From IMG/VR virus record IMGVR_UViG_3300030732_000036, positions 1 through 42,470 of that record: 42,470 nt of DNA; one strand, written 5' to 3'. Shown here in pieces: positions 5,402 through 15,467 of the stretch (the first letter of the stretch is position 1; each line of letters begins with the position of its first letter). The position numbers and the translations under genes were made by a program. The notes beneath the pieces were generated by a model. The model did no database searches. It was not told the origin of the DNA and saw nothing but the letters and a program-made list of their open reading frames with translations. This stretch comes from a virus.

Positions 5402-5539
5402 ATGGCAAAGATGGACCTCACCAAATTCCTGGAAGCCGTTGGCGGCAAACCGCTGCCGCAATGGCAGCGCGACATGATCAACGCGCTGTGGGCTGCACGC
5501 GTCACGAAGGATCTGTGCGAAAAATTACGCAAGGGGTAG
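5402..5539 (+). CDS. hypothetical small protein (45 aa)
   Basis: The ATG lies 2 nt after the upstream stop. Weak RBS and short length. Confidence 0.35.
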   Translation: MAKMDLTKFLEAVGGKPLPQWQRDMINALWAARVTKDLCEKLRKG

Positions 5540-5691
5540 GGCGGGTCGAAACTTTAAAAGCTTGACTTTTGGAAGGACCGGCGCTAGCCTTCGATTTAAC
5601 GCAAAGGCATAATTTCTTGGGGAAACATTACTGAGATACAACACAATTCAGGGCAATCGGAGGGGTAGCGGGACCTACGAGCTACATGCAA

Positions 5692-5719
5692 ATTATAGCA
5701 CGAAACCGCATTTGTACAA
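5692..5719 (-). promoter_or_regulatory. leftward extended -10 promoter: TTGTAC-N16-(TGc)TATAAT, with the -35 inside palindrome TTTGTACAAA (5711..5720)
   Basis: Minus strand reads TTATTTGTACAAATGCGGTTTCGTGCTATAATTTGCATG. It points away from terS and against all flanking genes. Confidence 0.45.
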
Positions 5720-5726
5720 ATAATTT

Positions 5727-6215
5727 ATGACCACGAAAACCGCCCCCCGCAGAGCCCGATCCGACAGCGCCACCGCCGCGATAAACGCCGCAAAAAATGC
5801 CGCGCTTGGCGACCTTATGCCCCCCGAGCACGTAAAAATTTCCCCTGAAGTTCTGCCCGACTACATCGCCATCGTCCGCGCCCGCGCGCGCGACGAGTGG
5901 AGCGAACTGGACCTGATCGTCGCCGCCCAGCTGGCCGAGGTGATCGGGCAGCAGCGCGAGCAGACTGCGAAAATCACGCTCGAAGGCGACGTGGTGGAAA
6001 ACATGAAAGGCACCTTGGTTGCCAACCCCCGGGTGACGATTCTCGAACGCCTGGCCGGCCGACAAATGGCCTACATGCGCACGCTGCAGATGGGCGGCCG
6101 GGTGCCCGGCACCGCCGGCGACAAGCGCAAGAAGCAAGGCGCGCGGCAGCTTGAACGTGGCGCCCGCGCCGCGCACCAACAAGCCGCCGACGAAACCAAC
6201 AACCTGCTGGCGTAA
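5727..6215 (+). CDS. terS: terminase small subunit (P27-family-like)
   Basis: Lies immediately upstream of terL and is coupled to it by TAATG. Basic N- and C-termini. The call rests on position and loose similarity only. Confidence 0.6.
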   Translation: MTTKTAPRRARSDSATAAINAAKNAALGDLMPPEHVKISPEVLPDYIAIVRARARDEWSELDLIVAAQLAEVIGQQREQTAKITLEGDVVENMKGTLVANPRVTILERLAGRQMAYMRTLQMGGRVPGTAGDKRKKQGARQLERGARAAHQQAADETNNLLA

Positions 6216-7786
6216 TGGCCGCGCGAGCAAAAAAGCCGATGACCCGCGGCGAGCGGGTGATTGCGTTCATCGAAACCTACTGCATCGTGCCCGAGGGCGA
6301 CTTGATCGGCCAGCCGATGCGGCTCGAACCGTTCCAGCGCAAGTGGGTGCTGGAGGTGTACGACAACCCGCACGGCACCCACACCGCCGTGCTGTGCATC
6401 GGCCGCAAGAACGGCAAGACCGCGCTGATCGCGGCCCTTCTGCTGTGCCACATCGCCGGCCCCGAGGCGGTGCAGAATTCCCAGATCGTCAGCGGCGCCA
6501 TGTCCAAGGACCAGGCGGCCATCGTGTTCAAGCTGGCGCGCAAGATGGTCGAAATGTCCGGCGACCTGGCCGCCCGGGTGCGGGTGTTCCCCTCGGTGAA
6601 ATCCTTGCTCGGCCTGTCGAAGAACGTTGAGTACAACGCGCTGTCCGCCGAGGCGAAGACGAAGCACGGGCTCTCGCCGATCCTGGTGATCTTCGACGAG
6701 ATGGGCCAGGTGCGAGGGCCGATGAACGACTTCGTGACCGCGCTCGAGACCGCGCAAGGTGCGTATGACCACGCCCTGAAGTTCATCATCTCGACCCAAG
6801 CGCCGAGCGACGCCGACATGCTGTCCATCATCATCGACGCGCAGCTCGACCCGCTCAACACCCCGGACCCCCAGGTGGTGGTGCACCTCTACACCGCGCC
6901 GATGACGCGCAAGGGCCCGGACGGCAAGGACATCGAGATCCCTTTCGACGACGAGGACGGCATGCGCGCGGCGAACCCGGCGCTCGGGGTGTTCCGGTCC
7001 ATGAACGACCTGCGCAAGCTGTGCACGAAGGCCCACACCACGCCGTCGTTCGAGCCCGAGTTCCGGAACCTGAACCTGAACCAGCGGGTGGAGGCGGCGG
7101 CGCCGTTCGTGCCGCGGTCGGTGTGGATGGCGAACGGCGCCGACCCGGTGGCCAAGCCGCGCCCGCGCGTCTATGGCGGCCTGGACCTCTCGGCCGTCAA
7201 CGACTTGACCGCCCAAGTCCTGGTAGACGCCGACGACGGCAGCGTGTGGCCAACGTTCTGGTTGCCGGCGCACGGGCTCAAGGAGAAGGCGAAAGCGGAC
7301 AAAGTTCCCTATGACATTTGGGAGAAGCAAGGATTCTTGCAGACAACCCCCGGAAAAGCGATAGAATACGAGTTTATAGCCTTGCATTTGCGCAAAGTGT
7401 TCGACGAGAACGACGTGCAGCTGTTCGGTTTCGACCGTTACAACATGAAATTCCTGAAGCCTTGGCTCGCAAAAGCCGGGTTTAGCCAAGAGGAAATTGA
7501 CAAATTTGTTGAATTCGGGCAGGGTACGGCCAGCATGACCCCCGCCCTGCGCGACCTGGAGGTAAAATTGTTGAACGCACAACTTAAGCACGGCAACCAC
7601 CCTGTGCTCAACATGTGCGCAGCCAACGCCAAGGTGGTAGGCGACAGCGGCGCCCGCAAGTTCGACAAGCGCACCATCCGCGGTCGCATCGACGGTATGG
7701 TGGCCCTGGCCATCGCGGCGGGCGTGATGCCGCAGCCGGTCGAGGAAGAGTCCGGCACCCTTGAGGATTACCTGGCCACGGCATGA
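6215..7786 (+). CDS. terL: terminase large subunit
   Basis: Walker A-like motif CIGRKNGKT and Walker B-like motif ILVIFDEMG, followed by a C-terminal nuclease-type region. Sits directly upstream of the portal gene. Confidence 0.9.
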   Translation: MAARAKKPMTRGERVIAFIETYCIVPEGDLIGQPMRLEPFQRKWVLEVYDNPHGTHTAVLCIGRKNGKTALIAALLLCHIAGPEAVQNSQIVSGAMSKDQAAIVFKLARKMVEMSGDLAARVRVFPSVKSLLGLSKNVEYNALSAEAKTKHGLSPILVIFDEMGQVRGPMNDFVTALETAQGAYDHALKFIISTQAPSDADMLSIIIDAQLDPLNTPDPQVVVHLYTAPMTRKGPDGKDIEIPFDDEDGMRAANPALGVFRSMNDLRKLCTKAHTTPSFEPEFRNLNLNQRVEAAAPFVPRSVWMANGADPVAKPRPRVYGGLDLSAVNDLTAQVLVDADDGSVWPTFWLPAHGLKEKAKADKVPYDIWEKQGFLQTTPGKAIEYEFIALHLRKVFDENDVQLFGFDRYNMKFLKPWLAKAGFSQEEIDKFVEFGQGTASMTPALRDLEVKLLNAQLKHGNHPVLNMCAANAKVVGDSGARKFDKRTIRGRIDGMVALAIAAGVMPQPVEEESGTLEDYLATA

Positions 7787-9108
7787 AAAACAAGACCCTT
7801 ACCAGCCTCGCCAAGGGCATCTTCTTCTCCATTCGCGACGCGCTCGCGTACCGTCAGGCCGTTCACGACGCCAACAAGAATGTCACCATCAACACCGGTG
7901 ATAGTACCGCCAGCCGCGCGCCCGGCATTGATGTGGCTCTACAGCTGTCCACGGTGTGGGCGTGTGTGCGCCTGATCGCCGAGACCATATCCACGCTGCC
8001 CCTGTTCACCTACGAGACCGTGATGGTCGACGGCAAGCGCACCCGCCGCATCGCCGACGATATCCCCCTTTACTCCCTGCTGCACGACTCCCCGAACGCG
8101 GACATGACGGCCGTCGAGTTCTGGGAGGCGGTGCTGTCGGGCCTGCTGCTGTGGGGGAACGCCTACGTGCTCAAGACCTACGGCACCGGCGGTCGGCTGG
8201 TGGCGCTGACGCCGCTGAACCCCGGAGTGGTGACGCCGCGGCGCACACCAGGCGGGGCGATCGAGTACCTGTACGGCGACCGAACGGGACAAAAGATCTA
8301 CAGCGAGCGGGACATTTGGCATGTTAAGGGGTTCGGCACAAACGGGCTGTGCGGCCTGTCGCCGATCGGTGTGGGCTGGCGCTCGATGGCCGGTGCCGCC
8401 GCCGCCGAGGTGGCCAGCGCGAACACCTTCACCAGCGGCATGCGGGTGCAGGCGACCGTATCGGTCAAGGAGTACCTGAAGCCAGAGCAGCGCGAGCAGA
8501 TGAAAGAAAAGGTCATGGGCGCCGTGTTCGGTAACGCCCAGACCGGCCAGCTGCAGCTGCTCGAGGGCGGCGCCGAGATGAAGCAGCTATCCATCAACCC
8601 GGTGGACGCGCAAATGCTGGAAACGCGCCAGTACGGCGTCGAGGATCTGTGCCGCTGGTTCGGGGTGCCGCCGTCGATGATCGGCCACGGCACGGCCACC
8701 TCGAACTGGGGCACCGGGCGCGAACAGCAGAACATGGGTTTCGTACAGTACGTGCTGCGCGCCTACATGGTCCGCATCGAGCAGGGGATCAAGAAGTCCT
8801 TGATGACGCCGGCCGAGCGCCTGCGCTACTTCGCCGAATACAGCCTGGACGCGCTGCTGCGCGCCGACACCGAGACCCGGTTCAAGGTCTACGCCACCGC
8901 CACACAGAACGGGCTGAAGACCCGCAACGAGTGCCGCGCGTTGGAGAACGACCCACCGGTGCCGGGCGGCGATGAATTGACTGTACAAAGCAACCTCATC
9001 CCCCTTACACTGTTGGGCAAAATCACTAATACTGCCCAAACAGCAAAATCAGCCCTGCTCGATTGGCTGGGCCTCACCAAGAAGGATCACGATGGACTAC
9101 CTGACTAA
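7783..9108 (+). CDS. portal protein (HK97 family)
   Basis: ATGA coupling to terL. Portal signature LSTVWACVRLIAETISTLPL. Size of 441 aa fits. Confidence 0.9.
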   Translation: MKNKTLTSLAKGIFFSIRDALAYRQAVHDANKNVTINTGDSTASRAPGIDVALQLSTVWACVRLIAETISTLPLFTYETVMVDGKRTRRIADDIPLYSLLHDSPNADMTAVEFWEAVLSGLLLWGNAYVLKTYGTGGRLVALTPLNPGVVTPRRTPGGAIEYLYGDRTGQKIYSERDIWHVKGFGTNGLCGLSPIGVGWRSMAGAAAAEVASANTFTSGMRVQATVSVKEYLKPEQREQMKEKVMGAVFGNAQTGQLQLLEGGAEMKQLSINPVDAQMLETRQYGVEDLCRWFGVPPSMIGHGTATSNWGTGREQQNMGFVQYVLRAYMVRIEQGIKKSLMTPAERLRYFAEYSLDALLRADTETRFKVYATATQNGLKTRNECRALENDPPVPGGDELTVQSNLIPLTLLGKITNTAQTAKSALLDWLGLTKKDHDGLPD

Positions 9109-9757
9109 AGCGATCCCGCTGGAGATCAAGGCCCAAGGCGCTAACGGCACCTTCTCAGGGTATGGCTCGGTGTTCAACGTGCTGGACAAGGGCGGCGACA
9201 TCATCGTGCCGGGCGCCTTCACGGCCAGCCTGGCGCGCTGGAAGGCGTCGGGCCGCAACGTGCCCATGCTGTGGCAGCACGACACCGACGAGCCAATCGG
9301 GCACTGGCCTGAGCTGAAGGAAGACGACCACGGCCTGTTCGGCACCGACGCCCAGCTGTGGCTGGAGGACGCGCCGTATGCGCGCCTGGCGCAGAAGGGC
9401 ATGAGCACGAAGACGATCACCGGCCTGTCGATCGGCTACCGCGTCAAGCGCTTCTCGAAGGACACGGCGACCAGCGTCTATACGCTGCAGGAGCTGGATC
9501 TGGTCGAGATTTCGGTGGTCACGAACCCGATGAACGACCAGGCCCGCATCTCCGATGTGAAATCCATGATCGAGGCCGGCCGCTTGCCGAGCCTCCAAGA
9601 ATTTGAGCAGTTCCTGCGCGAGGCAGGCGGCTTCTCGAAATCGCAGGCCACCGCCATCGCCGGTAATGGTCTGTCGAAACTGCTGCACCGGGGTGAGCCT
9701 GGCGGCGACAATGGCGATATCCTGGCCGCGCTCAGCGGCTTCAAAATCACCCCATAA
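9092..9757 (+). CDS. prohead maturation protease (HK97 / S78-U35 type)
   Basis: Motif pattern FSGYGSVFNVLDKGGDIIVPGAF ... LWQHD...PIG ... SIGY. Lies between portal and capsid genes. Confidence 0.85.
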   Translation: MDYLTKAIPLEIKAQGANGTFSGYGSVFNVLDKGGDIIVPGAFTASLARWKASGRNVPMLWQHDTDEPIGHWPELKEDDHGLFGTDAQLWLEDAPYARLAQKGMSTKTITGLSIGYRVKRFSKDTATSVYTLQELDLVEISVVTNPMNDQARISDVKSMIEAGRLPSLQEFEQFLREAGGFSKSQATAIAGNGLSKLLHRGEPGGDNGDILAALSGFKITP

Positions 9758-9770
9758 AAGGAGTAACACC

Positions 9771-10952
9771 ATGCCACGCGACGACAACGACGCAACCGAA
9801 ATTAAAACCGAACTGGCCAAGATCGGCGATCAGGTCAAAGAATACGGCGAGAAAGCGCTGGCCGAAGCCAAGCGCGGTATCGCCATGACCGAGGCCGAGA
9901 AAGCCCGTGTTGACGAAATCCTGGTCAAGCAAGGCGAACTGCAGGCCGGCCTGACCGAGGTCGAGCAAAAGCTGGCACGCCAGGGCGAGCAGAACGACGC
10001 CCGTGTCAAATCGCTGGGCACCCAGGTGATCGAAAACGAGGCCTTCAAAAAGGCGCAATCCGCAGGCCAGCTGCGCCAGAAGGGCGGGCGCGTCACGGTG
10101 GAGATCAAGGCCATCGCCACGTCGACCTCGAACGTGGTCACCCCCGACTACCGCCCAGGCATCAACACGATTCCGAATCGCCGCCTGACGATCCGCGACC
10201 TGATTGCGCCAGGCCGCACCTCGTCGAACCTGGTGAACTACATCAAGGAAACCGGCTTCACCAACAACGCGGCACCGGTGGCCGAGGGTGCGCGCAAACC
10301 TGAATCGACCATCACCCACGCGCTGTCGAGCGCCGCGGTGAAAAAGCTGGCGCACTTCATGAAGGCCTCGACCGAGATCCTCGACGACCTGCCGGCGCTG
10401 ATGTCGCAGATCGACGCCCGCCTGGTCTACGGCCTGAAGCTGATCGAGGAAGGCCAGCTGCTCAAGGGTGCCGGCACCGGCAACAACCTGAACGGCATTT
10501 ACACCCAGGCCACCGCGTTCTCGGCGCCGATCGCCGTTACCTCGCCGACCAAGATCGATACGCTTCGCCTGATGCTGTTGCAAGCCGAGCTGGCCGAGTA
10601 CCCTTCGGACGGCATCGTACTGCACCCATCGGAATGGGCCACGATCGAGCTGCTGAAGGACACCACCGGCCGTTACCTGATCGGCAACCCACAGGGCAGC
10701 CTGTCGCCGACCCTGTGGGGCCGCCCGGTGGTCGAGACCCAGGCCATGACGGTCGACACCGCCCTGGTGGGTTCGTTCAAGCTGGCCGCGCAGATCTTCG
10801 ACCGCGAAGAAGCGTCGATCGTCATCGCGACCGAGAACGAAGACGATTTCGTCAACAACCTGATCACCATCCTGATCGAGGAGCGCCTGGCGCTGGCCGT
10901 GTACCGTCCTGAAGCCTTCATTAAGAACACCAACTTCGACGGCAGCGTGTAA
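9771..10952 (+). CDS. major capsid protein (HK97 fold family)
   Basis: AGGAG RBS. N-terminal coiled delta-like region, then RDLI..GRTSS..V.Y..E...N.A..VAEG..KPES typical of HK97-family capsids. The upstream extension from 9603 was rejected. Confidence 0.9.
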   Translation: MPRDDNDATEIKTELAKIGDQVKEYGEKALAEAKRGIAMTEAEKARVDEILVKQGELQAGLTEVEQKLARQGEQNDARVKSLGTQVIENEAFKKAQSAGQLRQKGGRVTVEIKAIATSTSNVVTPDYRPGINTIPNRRLTIRDLIAPGRTSSNLVNYIKETGFTNNAAPVAEGARKPESTITHALSSAAVKKLAHFMKASTEILDDLPALMSQIDARLVYGLKLIEEGQLLKGAGTGNNLNGIYTQATAFSAPIAVTSPTKIDTLRLMLLQAELAEYPSDGIVLHPSEWATIELLKDTTGRYLIGNPQGSLSPTLWGRPVVETQAMTVDTALVGSFKLAAQIFDREEASIVIATENEDDFVNNLITILIEERLALAVYRPEAFIKNTNFDGSV

Positions 10953-10979: not shown

Positions 10980-11002
10980 TTGCACACCCAAAGGACAGAA
11001 TC

Positions 11003-11242
11003 ATGAAAGTCAAAGCGAGAGCACTGGACACCTTCTTCGATGGTCGCCTGCACGCGGTCAAGGACGGCGTCTACACCATGAACAAGGGCAGCGCCGACGA
11101 GCTGGTGGCGGTGGGCCTGGTCGAGATTGTCGGCGATGCCGACGACGATGCTATCGACGACCTGGTCGACACCAAAATGGAACCGATCAGCCACAACAAA
11201 ATGGAGCCCGCGCCAAGGAACAAGGCCGGCGGCAAAAAGTAA
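11003..11242 (+). CDS. hypothetical small acidic/basic protein (79 aa)
   Basis: AGGA RBS. Acidic stretch followed by a duplicated KMEP motif and a Lys-rich tail. Confidence 0.55.
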   Translation: MKVKARALDTFFDGRLHAVKDGVYTMNKGSADELVAVGLVEIVGDADDDAIDDLVDTKMEPISHNKMEPAPRNKAGGKK

Positions 11243-11254
11243 AAGGAGCACGAC

Positions 11255-11722
11255 ATGGCAACAGGCAATATGAAGTGGTTCGCACAGGCGCTGCTCGATG
11301 GGTTCAAGAAACTGCACGACCTGAGCGCCGATGATATCCGTATGGGCATCGTGACTAACGCTGTGGTGCCGACGCTAGCCACGGCGGACCCGCGTTGGGG
11401 TGCCGGCGGCACCACCGATTTCTCGGCCAATCAAGTCCCTTTGGCGACCGGCTACGCAGGCCCTGTGGCGCTCGATAACGAGACATGGACCCTGGTGTCC
11501 AACGTGCCGACGCTGCGTGCCGATATTGAAGATATTCCGATGGACGCCAGTGGCTTCACCACCGGCGCCTATGGCATCATCTTCAACAACACGGACGCAG
11601 GCAAACGCTGCCTGGGCTTCGTCGAGATTTCGGCGGCGGGATCGGGCTCGAATGTCGGCGCGATCTTGCGTCTCGACTGGTCGGGTGCGAGCAACGACAT
11701 GTTCACCATCACCCAGGCGTAA
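11255..11722 (+). CDS. hypothetical structural-module protein (155 aa)
   Basis: AAGGAG RBS. Beta-rich composition, located in the head module. Function not recognised. Confidence 0.6.
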   Translation: MATGNMKWFAQALLDGFKKLHDLSADDIRMGIVTNAVVPTLATADPRWGAGGTTDFSANQVPLATGYAGPVALDNETWTLVSNVPTLRADIEDIPMDASGFTTGAYGIIFNNTDAGKRCLGFVEISAAGSGSNVGAILRLDWSGASNDMFTITQA

Positions 11723-11728
11723 GCACAC

Positions 11729-12817
11729 ATGGTCACGCCAACAAACGTCAGCTATTCGGCGGGCAGCGGCGAGACCATTTATGCGGGTCTCTTCGACCCC
11801 GGGGTGCAGCCGGCATGGCTGGCGGCGCACCCGGCGCTATTCGAGTGGTTCGAGATCCCCGGCACGTCCGGGGCGGATGGTGCGGCTGTTGACGCCTATT
11901 GCGGGATGGCTCTCAAACAGGCCACCGCCGAAATCATCGTCGCGCTGAGTGGCGGGCATCTGGATTCGTACGACAACCGGGTCAGCAGTATTTCCTTGCT
12001 GGATGACGCCCCAGCTTGGGTTCGCCGTCACGAGCCAACGCCAGCCGGGCAGGTTCTCGCCAACCAGTCATACAACGCGGACGGCCTGCCGGCATCGCGC
12101 CATACCCGGTATCAATGCATCTACGTGCCGCAACTGAACCGCTTAATCATGCTGGGGTCGCCGTCGCTATATGGCGGCAGCGTAGTGTCGTCTACGGAAT
12201 CGAACGGTTTCGACCTGGCGACGAATACATGGGATGCGGCAGGAACCTGGACACCAACGGCAAACGGCGGGTCATACGGGTCTGCCGTTGACGATCTTGG
12301 CAATATCTGGTTGCGTGGCGGTGGAAAATGGCTTCGTGAAACCGACACGATAGTGTCAACTGCTGTTGTTCGTGCGCCGAACATGTGGGACCCAGTGCGT
12401 CGGCATCTTTTCACTATGTACACCGGAGACGGGCAGGGCTTTGGAACTGACTTCGTGGCCAAGACCGTCCACGAGACGACGGGCGTCGGCACCAACATCA
12501 CGTTCAACGACAGCGCGGCGTACACCGAATTCCGAGCGCTGAGCCTTTCCTATTGTGCGATGACATACAACCCGCTGAACGGACGCTATCTCTATTATTT
12601 CGGCCAAGGTGCAAATCAGGGCGTGATTTACGAGGTAGCCCCGAACGACACGACCGTGTGGGACATGGCGAAGATCGTACAGGGCGCAGGAACCATCCTG
12701 CCTGTGGCGGCGCCTAGCGCGGGCATCCAGACCAAATTCCAATACGTCGCCGCGCTCAAAGGTATCGTGATGCTGGCGCGTAAGACATCGAACTTATACT
12801 TTATGCGACTGGAGTAA
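11729..12817 (+). CDS. beta-propeller-like (Kelch / galactose-oxidase-like) protein, function unknown
   Basis: 362-aa ORF with repeated G/W/Y-rich blade-like segments. Third codon positions look visibly less GC-rich than in flanking capsid genes. The fold call is tentative. Confidence 0.55.
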   Translation: MVTPTNVSYSAGSGETIYAGLFDPGVQPAWLAAHPALFEWFEIPGTSGADGAAVDAYCGMALKQATAEIIVALSGGHLDSYDNRVSSISLLDDAPAWVRRHEPTPAGQVLANQSYNADGLPASRHTRYQCIYVPQLNRLIMLGSPSLYGGSVVSSTESNGFDLATNTWDAAGTWTPTANGGSYGSAVDDLGNIWLRGGGKWLRETDTIVSTAVVRAPNMWDPVRRHLFTMYTGDGQGFGTDFVAKTVHETTGVGTNITFNDSAAYTEFRALSLSYCAMTYNPLNGRYLYYFGQGANQGVIYEVAPNDTTVWDMAKIVQGAGTILPVAAPSAGIQTKFQYVAALKGIVMLARKTSNLYFMRLE

Positions 12818-12820
12818 CAC

Positions 12821-13876
12821 ATGCCCGTTCAATCTGACGGAACCACAGGGTATCTCGAGCACCCCGATAAGATTGTCAGCGCCTACCCGATGTCACTAGC
12901 GGTATGGGGAACTCGCACCTCGTCGTCAGGCGATCAGTATTGGATCACTCAAGCTCAGTCCAACGGTGACCGATACGTCGGGGGCTACCAGAAAAGCGCA
13001 AGCGAAGCAAAGCTCGCGGTAATGCAAGAGCCCGGTTCGTCTCGCTCGGCGCAGAAATCGGGAGCCCCTAACGTCAGCTCAACCGTGCTGCAACTGATGG
13101 TGGTTGTTATCCACAGCAAGGACAGTCGGACTATTTATTTCGGTGACACGAACGGCGTCACCGACAATGCAACCGGTGTAAACGGCATTGCGAACCACAA
13201 CCTGTGCACGTTGGGCGCTCGGCACTACAACAGCGGAGCGGCGTCCCTATTCATCAAGGGGGCGCTGGCCGAAGCGCACTGGTATAACGTCGCGCTGACC
13301 CCCGCAGACGTCGGCAACATGATCGCCGATACGGTCAAGCCGGAAGCAATTTCAGGTTGGGTCGATGGTTGGATGCTGAAGGACTTCGAGGCCGACGGCA
13401 CGTACACCTCGATCGGCGGGACGCGCACCATGACCGCTGTTGGCGGTATCAGCGCATCGGCGCTGGCACATCCTATCAATCGGTCAAGCGGCGTCACCAC
13501 CATCAACTGCACCCCTGCCAACGCGGACGCGCAGGGTCTGACAGCGGCCGTCACGTCGGGCGGGGTGGTGGCGATCAGCTGCACGCCGGGGGCGGCCACC
13601 GCCGCCGGGGCGACCGCAGCGGTTAGGCGCTTGATCCATTCCGATTACGCCATCAATAACGCCGGCATCGCGCAGGCCAGCGCGGCGGTCCATTATTCGT
13701 GGTTCCCGGGCGGCCGTGTGGGGGCCCTGACCGGCATCACCCCAACAGAGGGCACCGCGACCTTGCAGGCGGACGGCAGCTTTAAAACGAATATCGACCT
13801 GGTCCCGGGCGCGCTGATGTACAGCGTTCTGGCGGGCTCCTACTTGGATGACGCGGTCTACTGGGAATTCTTCTAA
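12821..13876 (+). CDS. LamG / concanavalin-A-like lectin-fold protein with two C-terminal 24-aa Cys repeats
   Basis: GGAG RBS. Laminin_G_3-like end motif IKGALAEAHWYNVALTPADV. Repeats TTINCTPANADAQGLTAAVTSGGV and AISCTPGAATAAGATAAV lie at 13496-13624. Confidence 0.65.
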   Translation: MPVQSDGTTGYLEHPDKIVSAYPMSLAVWGTRTSSSGDQYWITQAQSNGDRYVGGYQKSASEAKLAVMQEPGSSRSAQKSGAPNVSSTVLQLMVVVIHSKDSRTIYFGDTNGVTDNATGVNGIANHNLCTLGARHYNSGAASLFIKGALAEAHWYNVALTPADVGNMIADTVKPEAISGWVDGWMLKDFEADGTYTSIGGTRTMTAVGGISASALAHPINRSSGVTTINCTPANADAQGLTAAVTSGGVVAISCTPGAATAAGATAAVRRLIHSDYAINNAGIAQASAAVHYSWFPGGRVGALTGITPTEGTATLQADGSFKTNIDLVPGALMYSVLAGSYLDDAVYWEFF

Positions 13877-15111
13877 TGCCTCTGCGGAACCTCAATCAGC
13901 GACTATCCCGTGGGCGGGTGCTCGACACCCCGCAATCGGGCCGCCTGGCGGAATTGTTCCCCTCGACGGGCGAACACGGCCCCGCATACCCTTACCCCAG
14001 CCTGGTGTTCCCTGCCGATACCGGCAAAGAGATCAGCGCCTATATCACCGTGCTGCCGGTCGGCCTGACGACCTTCGAAGCCGACAATCTGGGGCGCATG
14101 GTGGCGAGTGGCCCGGACGGCGTCTACACCTTCCAATTCCAGCTGGCGGCCAATGGTGTGGATGTCGGTGCTCCGGCGACGGGGACGCTGACCATTGGCG
14201 CTGCGGCACCGACCGTTATAAACTGCACCCCCGCCAACGCCGGTGCGGCGGGGCTCACGGCCGCCATCACAAACGGAGGCTTGACGACCATCTCGTGCAC
14301 CCCCGCCAATGCCGCCGCAGCAGGCGCGACGGCCACGGTCACGAACGGCGCGGTGAATACCGTGGCATGCACGCCCGCCGGTGCCGCAGCGGGCGGCCTG
14401 ACCGCAACGGTGACGTTCGGAGGGCTGACGACCGTTTCCTGCGCCCCCGCGGCCGCGCTCGCCGGGGGATTAACCGCCACGGTGACGAACGGGGCGGCCG
14501 TGATCGTCACCTGCACGCCGGCGAACGCGATTGCGGCCGGGCGTACCGCTATAATTTCTGGAGAAGACATGAGCGAACCGATCACCCTTGCCCGGGCTAA
14601 GGCTCACCTGCGGGTGGTCGTGAGCGATGACGACGACTACATATCCGACCTCATCGTGGCGGCCCGCCAGATGATCGAACAGCGCACCCAGCGCGCCATT
14701 GTGACCAGGACCGAGTCCCTCGCCTTCGACACCTTCCCTTCGGTCGTTCGGCTACCGTGGCCGCCGTTCTCCCAGATCCTCGAGATCAGCTATATCGACG
14801 AGAATGGCGCTTCTGCCACCCTGCCGCCGGAAAACTACGTCGTCAACGACTACGCCGAGCCCGCGAGGATGACGCGTGCCAGCGGCGCCACGTGGCCCAC
14901 CCACGCCGCGCAAGAGGCCGCCGTGGTGATCACCTATGAGACCGGGTACGCGGGCGCCAACGCCGTCCCCGTGCCGCTCAAACAGTGGATGCTGCTGGCA
15001 ATCGGCGCGATGTACGAGAATCGCGAGCAGTGCGCCGCCGGCGTGCAAATCTATTCGATCCCGGAGGACTTCATGGGCCTGCTGTGGCAACCCTACATGG
15101 TGTACATGTAA
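13876..15111 (+). CDS. Ig-like domain + 5 x 24-aa Cys repeats fused in frame to a gp6-like head-tail connector
   Basis: TAATG coupling to the upstream gene. Cys at residues 117, 141, 165, 189 and 213. The C-terminal 180 aa have the connector signature ITLARAKAHLRV..DDDDYISDLIVAARQMIEQ. Confidence 0.7.
   Translation: MPLRNLNQRLSRGRVLDTPQSGRLAELFPSTGEHGPAYPYPSLVFPADTGKEISAYITVLPVGLTTFEADNLGRMVASGPDGVYTFQFQLAANGVDVGAPATGTLTIGAAAPTVINCTPANAGAAGLTAAITNGGLTTISCTPANAAAAGATATVTNGAVNTVACTPAGAAAGGLTATVTFGGLTTVSCAPAAALAGGLTATVTNGAAVIVTCTPANAIAAGRTAIISGEDMSEPITLARAKAHLRVVVSDDDDYISDLIVAARQMIEQRTQRAIVTRTESLAFDTFPSVVRLPWPPFSQILEISYIDENGASATLPPENYVVNDYAEPARMTRASGATWPTHAAQEAAVVITYETGYAGANAVPVPLKQWMLLAIGAMYENREQCAAGVQIYSIPEDFMGLLWQPYMVYM
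14569..15111 (+). CDS. head-tail connector (gp6-like), possible independently initiated short isoform
   Basis: In-frame ATG 14569 is preceded by GGAGAAG. The resulting 180-aa product is a typical stand-alone connector in size and N-terminus. Confidence 0.55.
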   Translation: MSEPITLARAKAHLRVVVSDDDDYISDLIVAARQMIEQRTQRAIVTRTESLAFDTFPSVVRLPWPPFSQILEISYIDENGASATLPPENYVVNDYAEPARMTRASGATWPTHAAQEAAVVITYETGYAGANAVPVPLKQWMLLAIGAMYENREQCAAGVQIYSIPEDFMGLLWQPYMVYM

Positions 15112-15467
15112 TGCACGGCGGCCAACTTGACCGGCGCATCACGATTTGGCGCCCGACCGTCGTCGAAGACCCCGAGTATGGGCCGCAGCCAGGCGAGCGC
15201 GTGCCGGTCGCCACCCGCGTGCCGGCCCAGGTGCTGGATTCCCTGCCGAGCAAGAGCGAGAGCACGGAAGCGGGGGTCAAGGTGGCCGACAGGCCCGCGC
15301 GCGTGCGCATCCGCTACCTGCGCGGCATCACCTCGGACATGGAGATTACGCTGCACGACGGCCCGGACGCGAGCGGCGATGTGGAATTCAAGATCGTCGG
15401 CGGCCCTGCCGAAATAGGCCGGCGCGAGTGGACCGAATTTACAGTGACGCACTACTCGACACCATGA
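15111..15467 (+). CDS. head-tail joining / head-closure protein (SPP1 gp16-like)
   Basis: TAATG coupling. Motif pattern LDRRITIWRP......G......WA..RIRY. Expected position after the connector. Confidence 0.8.
   Translation: MHGGQLDRRITIWRPTVVEDPEYGPQPGERVPVATRVPAQVLDSLPSKSESTEAGVKVADRPARVRIRYLRGITSDMEITLHDGPDASGDVEFKIVGGPAEIGRREWTEFTVTHYSTP

Follow-up and report, generated by a model that had tools for sequence, protein, structure and literature searches.

A head–tail adaptor with a probable built-in neck appendage in an uncultured tailed phage, and matching repeats in the gene upstream

Introduction

What would a repeat-bearing arm do on a head–tail adaptor, and is such a fused protein real? 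This question is raised by a locus in the genome of an uncultured tailed phage, IMG/VR record IMGVR_UViG_3300030732_000036. The whole stretch of DNA analysed, here called the window, is this ~42-kb genome (42,470 nucleotides (nt), ~64% GC). In its open reading frame (ORF) 2, a beta-rich N-terminal domain (N-domain), five 24-residue single-Cys repeats and a gp6-type (Ad1) head–tail adaptor follow one another, and the preceding gene, ORF1, carries two further copies of the repeat behind a LamG lectin-like domain. A first-pass annotation had proposed that the repeats are fused in frame to the connector and that neck fibres or whiskers could result. The analysis described here suggests that ORF2 is probably a portal-binding head–tail adaptor with a built-in neck appendage, with ORF1 as its partner.

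Results

ORF2 joins an arm to a head–tail adaptor

The adaptor part of ORF2 scored 37.4 bits against PF05135 (cutoff 21.2) and 81.5 bits against TIGR02215 (cutoff 39), the latter alignment beginning at residue 233, and matched the PHROGs family phrog_442 (E=2e-26). The AlphaFold2 (AF2) model of the adaptor had a predicted local distance difference test score (pLDDT) of 74–89 over the core (approximately residues 281–360), with lower values at both ends. In a Foldseek search, this model matched the RcGTA adaptor chains 6TOA, 6TE8 and 6TBA (E=1–3e-4; target-normalised TM score 0.48–0.52), and it also matched the T5 adaptor (9ILP), 8HQO and the necks of DT57C and Milano. Based on hidden Markov model (HMM) scores above the curated cutoffs, gene position and fold, the C-terminal part of ORF2 is a genuine gp6-type adaptor. 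Its C-terminus is free and conserved (LLWQPYMVYM).

The arm was modelled with much lower confidence. The AF2 model of the whole of ORF2, built from 11 sequences, had a mean pLDDT of 53, with values of ~40 in the repeats and ~30–66 in residues 1–113. Within these limits, strands were predicted in the N-domain and two short strands in each repeat unit. The full model was too uncertain in the arm for a fold search, and the PDB fold search was informative for the adaptor part only. The N-domain gave no Pfam, NCBIfam or PHROG match and represents a family of its own with at least 15 clusters; the Ig-like label given to it earlier is thus unproven, in view of its low pLDDT and the absence of a family match. 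A 12-sequence alignment of the N-domain was too diverse to seed a scan.

The fusion is conserved

No stop codon lies between the repeats and the adaptor domain of ORF2. A junction of this kind could arise as an artefact, if two genes were joined through a stop codon or frameshift lost in sequencing or assembly, and the arm and adaptor are indeed separate genes in some relatives. However, an identical 411-aa protein was found on a second Joint Genome Institute contig (L106) from another sample, with 1808 nt identical. In addition, three diverged relatives (P0002, P0003 and P0004; 41–47% identity, 95–100% coverage) also carry the N-domain, repeats and adaptor in one frame, at loci that are syntenic with the window and come from three other datasets. 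The G+C content at third codon positions was highest in the ORF2 frame across all three segments (0.77, 0.79 and 0.86). An assembly artefact, which we consider extremely improbable, was rejected on the basis of the identical contig and the three fused relatives, and the in-frame fusion of repeats and connector is confirmed and conserved.

The first-pass annotation had held that a stop codon between repeats and connector in relatives would point to an artefactual fusion. Such a stop does occur in some relatives, but these carry a different adaptor subtype, and the fused form recurs independently; the split forms are therefore no sign of assembly error. The arm and adaptor genes are linked by a plain ATGA overlap in the split relative L004 and separated by a terminator-like hairpin in L032. 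No frameshift signal was detected when a programmed frameshift or overlap fusion was sought in these two loci.

The arm is found on several neck proteins

The N-domain was found in four arrangements. It occurs as a gene of its own, ending in a short basic tail, that abuts the adaptor gene (the L004 type with the ATGA overlap; L103 and L104); as an arm fused to the fiber-tail-adaptor domain of GP4 Gp77, PF23148 (L014 ORF, 53.7 bits; P0021, 46.6; P0057, 46.1; cutoff 27), the fused gene in L014 lying directly upstream of the adaptor gene; as a gene followed by separate Gp77-like genes (L007 and L102); and fused to a gp6-type adaptor, as in the window and L001–L003. In addition, P0011 (locus L009) consists of a LamG domain and nine repeats ending in a lambda-W-like joining domain (NF047331, 50.4 bits; cutoff 33), and its gene occupies the W position between terminase and portal.

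The same arm thus appears to have been exchanged among a gp6-type adaptor, a lambda-W-type joining protein and the Gp77 collar domain. A neck location is argued for chiefly by the presence of this arm architecture on three unrelated portal-proximal neck proteins, and the ORF2 arm most plausibly forms a neck appendage. The earlier proposal of a neck appendage is in this way supported by the alternative fusions of the arm to other neck anchors.

Three further features of these loci were observed. The stand-alone arms (L004, positions 5518–6210; L034; L035; L103) end in a conserved [VI]Y[AIT]RAP[SA]G.G motif followed by an Arg/Pro-rich basic tail. This terminal segment may be a non-covalent neck anchor, replaced in the window by fusion to the adaptor. 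In L009 (positions 899–2985), two overlapping ORFs, one of 521 aa and one of 183 aa that bears the GpA nuclease domain, apparently make up the lambda-type large terminase; a frameshift or a sequencing error could account for this split. P0006 (L010; GCA_030979865.1), an N-terminally extended adaptor on a phage contig, was deposited as a protein of Acer saccharum (sugar maple), and the plant assembly was probably contaminated with bacterial or phage DNA; by eye, its extension resembles the Gp77-like gene of L007.

The 24-residue repeat is a protein-level feature

As first annotated, seven copies of the Cys repeat are present, two in ORF1 and five in ORF2, with an exact Cys spacing of 24 residues. 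A profile restricted to the five ORF2 units was searched against the 603 six-frame segments of the window; it found ORF1 with E=4e-12, and beyond ORF1 nothing in these segments scored better than E=0.4. The second unit of ORF1 fits the repeat profile over ~17 residues only (independent E value, 5e-3). In the DNA, the repeat units are 44–68% identical and the longest exact in-register run is 14 nt; the longest shared stretch is likewise 14 nt within ORF2 and 20 nt between ORF1 and ORF2. Tandem Repeats Finder reported nothing in the window DNA, and a second DNA-level program, find_repeats, detected only copies of 62–70%. The repeat is a feature of the protein, and its DNA identity is too low for the 72-nt units to serve as the active recombination substrate that had been suggested; recombination between them is unlikely at present.

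The profile of the window repeat, used for the HMM search that the first-pass annotation had recommended, was run against 1.84 billion representative proteins and detected 90 clusters (E<=1e-3). Related arrays, for example those of L035, L042, L056 and L073, are missed by this narrow profile; the repeat family is therefore larger than 90 clusters. A locus search with a 48-aa repeat profile returned one locus. No Pfam-A or NCBIfam model and no PDB sequence matched the repeat region of ORF2 (residues 114–231), nor was the repeat matched in 86 repeat-bearing proteins, and within PHROGs only the adaptor family phrog_442, through the N-terminal part of its profile, overlaps it. These results agree with the earlier view that the repeat is an undescribed family.

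The usual layout of repeat-bearing proteins is a globular N-terminal head, approximately 2–34 repeat units and a very variable C-terminal segment, so that copy number, when compared among relatives, does vary. The Pfam partners of the family are LamG (14 proteins), Gp77 (five), SASA esterase (two) and GDSL (one), a set typical of fibres. Across 361 repeat instances, A9, A11, G13 and A16 are invariant (93–99%). The Cys position is occupied by Cys in 45–53%, by Ala in 32–36% and by Thr in 8–13% of cases; Cys is therefore better regarded as a small buried residue than as an obligate disulfide partner, and the disulfide role raised in the first annotation is unproven.

Many of these proteins (P0019, P0023, P0028, P0031, P0035, P0061, P0063, P0066, P0105 and others) have a charged, helical-looking segment near the C-terminus. 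After this segment come acidic residues and a hydrophobic end (...EDEDEELLWLML, ...DEEDVEILLMSL or ...DDDVLALLLM), together a recurring putative anchor motif.

Repeat types match between neighbouring genes

The spacers of the fused relatives are built from other repeats, namely, 14-aa xDLxxxYxV units in L001, EPNDxVSV in L002 and YTExSDT in L003. In all three loci, the gene immediately upstream bears the repeat type of the spacer of its own locus, and the two genes likewise match in repeat type in L097 (ATFAVTTADTVFSGG) and L101 (ASLTTSIxLAA). The spacers and upstream genes were compared in a matrix of 15 x 15 scores. In 11 of the 15 loci, the spacer of the N-domain gene reached its highest score with the upstream gene from the same genome, and these 11 include the five unrelated repeat types of L001, L002, L003, L097 and L101. 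For these types, which are not of the GNA type, the score margin exceeded two-fold in three of the five loci and was approximately 1.5–1.7-fold in L002 and L003.

The DNA matches between the two genes were only 13–36 nt in 11 of 12 loci, the exception being L097 with a match of 41 nt at 90%. Counted as shared runs, the matches were 13–20 nt in all loci but one. Because the peptides are matched and the DNA matches are short, the repeat match is kept at the protein level. Recent gene conversion as the source of the matching repeats was rejected for most loci for the same reason. Matching of this kind suggests co-assembly of the two proteins or a common partner.

ORF1 is the upstream gene of the window. 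Its residues 6–164 matched LamG PF13385 in the Pfam HMM search (40.6 bits; cutoff 27.6), and residues 273–351 form a conserved C-terminal domain (Cdom). In many loci, this domain immediately precedes the N-domain gene, and in most loci Cdom and N-domain adjoin across the gene boundary, an adjacency that fits an end-to-end or side-by-side complex of both proteins.

A candidate internal start lies at the domain boundary

A Shine-Dalgarno (SD) motif with an ATG at 14569, as noted in the first annotation, is present in the sequence. Here, ribosomes could also start at Met232, so that a plain 20-kDa adaptor would accompany the armed form of 42 kDa. How many fibres a neck bears would then depend on mixed dodecamers, a scheme compatible with an adaptor-borne neck appendage. 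The site coincides exactly with the domain boundary: Met232 is followed two residues later by the conserved EPITL motif and one residue later by the start of the TIGR02215 alignment. On the plus strand of a 20-kb region, six GGAG-N5-7-ATG sites were found, of which four are true gene starts, one is the junction site and one is internal, at 15073. The start of ORF2 itself has no upstream SD motif and depends on its TAATG overlap with the ORF1 stop. In L001, a GGAG-N5-TTG occurs at the same position, built from different codons.

However, L001 is the only one of the three fused relatives with an SD motif and start at the junction. L002 and L003 have neither and yet keep the fusion; the architecture can therefore do without a short isoform. 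Furthermore, the motif could be a relic of gene fusion, and the similar motif at 15073 inside the adaptor domain is surely non-functional. Mixing is also sterically unnecessary, since twelve arms per neck are sterically possible, as seen in Bas63 (PMC12609058). A short adaptor from Met232 is thus possible, with the evidence tilting slightly against it, and is not required by the neck-appendage model; two isoforms in a mixed 12-mer, as first proposed, are unproven. For the two products, sizes of about 44 and 20 kDa had been anticipated: the calculated mass of the short form agrees (20.1 kDa), while that of the full-length form is lower (42.4 kDa).

Organization of the surrounding genes

The genes of the window follow the order portal, protease, capsid, four-gene cassette, ORF2, PF05521, PF04883, PF11367 and tail tube (Table 1). 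The TAATG overlaps suggest that ORF1, ORF2 and the head-completion gene are translationally coupled. For the capsid gene, the most likely start is the ATG at 9771 (AGGAGTAACACC-ATG, 9759–9773, directly after the protease stop) instead of the listed TTG at 9603. An SD motif and ATG at 11003 (10992–11005) suggest that a small gene missing from the ORF list lies between those of the capsid and p155, and relatives show the same. No GenBank phage matched the region by Megablast. Contigs of metagenome-assembled genomes that bear the first cassette gene are labelled mostly Betaproteobacteria or Burkholderiaceae, a weak hint at a host in these groups.

The first product of the cassette, p155, is highly conserved; it has more than 211 homologues at 52–66% identity and belongs to no Pfam or PHROG family. 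Its AF2 model was confident (pLDDT 92), and no PDB fold matched it at E<=1e-3; in BFVD, it matched a structural protein of Agrobacterium phage 7-7-1 and the N-terminal parts of tail-collar fibre proteins. The p155 gene was present in every examined locus with GNAxAxG-type repeats, in HK97-like, lambda-like (L009) and GP4-like (L007) contexts, and was undetectable in loci with other repeat types, that is, L001–L003 (hhalign probability <1%), L097 and L101. The p155 protein may be a third component of the appendage. A relationship of p155 to the Bas63/GP4 whisker was considered and is unsupported, as the PDB fold search with the confident model found neither GP4 Fiber-1 nor the Bas63 whisker. 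The neighbouring p362 gave no Pfam, PHROG, NCBIfam or PDB match, and its gene is syntenic in L002, L004, L007, L023 and L034. No PDB sequence match was obtained for p155, p362 or ORF1, and no whisker or Fiber-1 homologue was found nearby. Curated family libraries have no entry for the repeat family, for the N-domain or for p155.

Table 1. Features of the window around the ORF2 locus
Feature	Position	Strand	Description
Methyltransferase, primase-helicase, small and large terminase subunits		+	
Portal	7783–9108	+	Followed by prohead protease and HK97-type major capsid protein
Four-gene cassette		+	Between capsid and adaptor genes; only known family is one LamG domain
p155	11255–11722	+	155 aa; first gene of cassette; highly conserved
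p362	11729–12817	+	362 aa; conserved cassette protein
ORF1	12821–13876	+	351 aa; LamG domain, two repeats, Cdom
Repeat units of ORF1	13499–13570 and 13571–13642	+	Two 24-aa units; Cys230, Cys254; unit 2 partial
Stop/start overlap ORF1–ORF2	13873–13878	+	TAATG
ORF2	13876–15111	+	411 aa, 42.4 kDa; N-domain, five repeats and head–tail adaptor in a single frame
N-domain	13876–14214	+	ORF2 residues 1–113; beta-rich; conserved start MxLRNLNQ..RGR
Repeat units of ORF2	14215–14574	+	Five 24-aa units; Cys117, 141, 165, 189, 213; last unit overlaps junction
Candidate internal ribosome-binding site and start	14560–14571	+	GGAGAAGAC-ATG (GGAG-N5-ATG); Met232
gp6-type (Ad1) head–tail adaptor domain	14569–15108	+	ORF2 residues 232–411; 20.1 kDa
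Stop/start overlap ORF2–head-completion gene	15108–15113	+	TAATG
Head-completion protein	15111–15467	+	PF05521, 49.9 bits; TAATG overlap with ORF2
Genes 3' of adaptor		+	Head-completion, HK97 gp10-like, tail-completion, tail tube, tape measure and distal tail proteins

Discussion

In this study, the domain make-up of ORF1 and ORF2, the conservation of the fusion, the fusion of the arm to alternative neck anchors and the matching of repeat types were established. In the model that we propose, the C-terminal 180 residues of ORF2 would form the usual dodecameric adaptor ring, with the C-terminal tail free to grip the portal clip. The N-terminus would point outward and bear an arm of 231 residues, in which the five beta-strand repeats would be the stalk and the N-domain the tip. 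ORF1 would be the partner of this arm, joined either by co-folding of the matching repeat segments or by docking of its small C-terminal domain on the N-domain of ORF2. The predicted outcome is a set of neck fibres with exposed LamG domains, which would probably bind glycans of the host surface reversibly.

This model can be compared with known neck structures. Adaptors grip the portal through the C-terminal tail (PMC12407722), and in Bas63, residue 2 of the adaptor touches an external 12-fold Ig-like collar (PMC12609058); both observations fit an arm at the N-terminus. The C-terminal 180 residues of ORF2 resemble adaptors of the HK97 gp6 and SPP1 gp15 type (TIGR02215 is the phiE125 gp8 family) in HMM matches, fold and gene position, the nearest solved structures being the RcGTA chains 6TE8 and 6TOA. 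Typical gp6-type adaptors are 100–190 aa in length, and unlike these, ORF2 has the long N-terminal arm. Cultured phages match ORF2 in the adaptor part only, with identities of up to 38%. Adaptors with N-terminal extensions that are shorter or unrelated are P0009 and P0010 (40 aa each) and P0006 (130 aa), and the profile of phrog_442 has such an extension too.

A close parallel to the arm is the collar–rope–whisker system of the myophage Bas63 and the podophage GP4, in which 12-fold appendages sit on the adaptor or head-completion ring and an N-terminal extension carries further subunits (PMC12609058). The N-terminal 'rope' of the Bas63 collar carries whiskers, and the collar is homologous to GP4 Gp77 and its rope (PMC12609058). 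Arms homologous to that of the window occur fused to Gp77 domains or with separate Gp77 genes behind them. In contrast to Bas63 and GP4, however, PF23148 was absent from ORF2 and the neighbouring products in a Pfam scan, and the arm is covalently part of the adaptor. Other accessory neck structures include the Ig-domain collar of Thermus phage P74-26, the fibritin whiskers of T4, XM1 gp40 and the neck passage structures of lactococcal phages, and some of these carry glycan-binding modules, those of lactococcal phages being carbohydrate-binding modules (PMC12407722, PMC10491603, PMC6669499). Unlike ORF2, they are separate proteins bound non-covalently or by disulfides, and an adaptor fusion is not reported for them (PMC12407722, PMC10491603, PMC6669499). 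The lambda gpW-type protein of L009 (NF047331), with its LamG and repeat arm fused N-terminally, parallels the design of the window, but it belongs to another anchor family and another phage type and is not found in the window.

Several points weigh against a neck appendage formed by ORF2 and ORF1. The neck location is predicted solely from gene fusions and the order of genes, and the co-assembly with ORF1 and the glycan-binding role are predictions as well. The arm is absent from the cultured phages in INPHARED, its AF2 model is of low confidence, and in sequence it resembles none of the solved collar, rope or whisker proteins in the PDB. In the PDB fold search, p155 did not match GP4 Fiber-1 or the Bas63 whisker, and the matching repeats could reflect an old duplication with concerted evolution instead of physical pairing.

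The last point leads to the explanation that the repeats are a plain spacer, a self-contained stalk such as a small beta-solenoid that sets the length of the arm, with the match arising by duplication and concerted evolution. This would agree with a copy number that ranges from ~2 to ~34 single units across the family (1–17 matched 48-residue double units), with the replacement of the repeat type between lineages while N-domain and adaptor persist, and with the 90% match in the DNA of L097. Independent spacers, however, would be expected to drift apart within a genome as fast as between phages, and in the 11 loci with only short DNA matches the peptides are still matched; we regard a plain spacer as rather unlikely. 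A stronger reading of the same matching is that the adaptor arm and the LamG protein, possibly together with p155, join by pairing lineage-specific beta-repeat segments, so that the repeats act as a matching code. This idea is tentative, and we would not expect it to hold in this strict form.

Alternatively, each repeat could dock a third protein, for which p155 is the best candidate, threading onto ORF1 and ORF2 like beads on a rope. The whisker dimers on the collar rope of Bas63 and GP4 Fiber-1 on its own rope provide the model, and Gp77 domains tie the arm gene family to this system (PMC12609058). The strict company of p155 with GNAxAxG-type repeats points in the same direction, as does the low AF2 confidence of isolated repeats, which fits folding on binding. 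On the other hand, this co-occurrence rests on few independent lineages, the confident p155 model lacks a match to either whisker protein, and the conserved small residues of the repeat look self-packing and less like a peptide ligand. Docking of p155 along the repeats is accordingly doubtful. The explanation that we prefer is the adaptor with a built-in neck appendage and ORF1 as its partner, which we consider probable.

Collars and whiskers in many phage cryo-electron microscopy maps are described as separate proteins, and here the appendage would lie within the adaptor polypeptide itself. The presence of the arm on three unrelated neck anchors offers a sequence-based route to neck appendage genes in uncultured phages. 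If a matching code exists, the repeat type would decide which fibre protein plugs onto which neck, and a swap of repeat type would re-wire the appendages of the virion. The matching over at least five repeat types at the protein level is a hint of such a repeat-to-repeat assembly rule, which, if true, would aid both the annotation of the large block of genes of unknown function between capsid and adaptor and the engineering of virion appendages.

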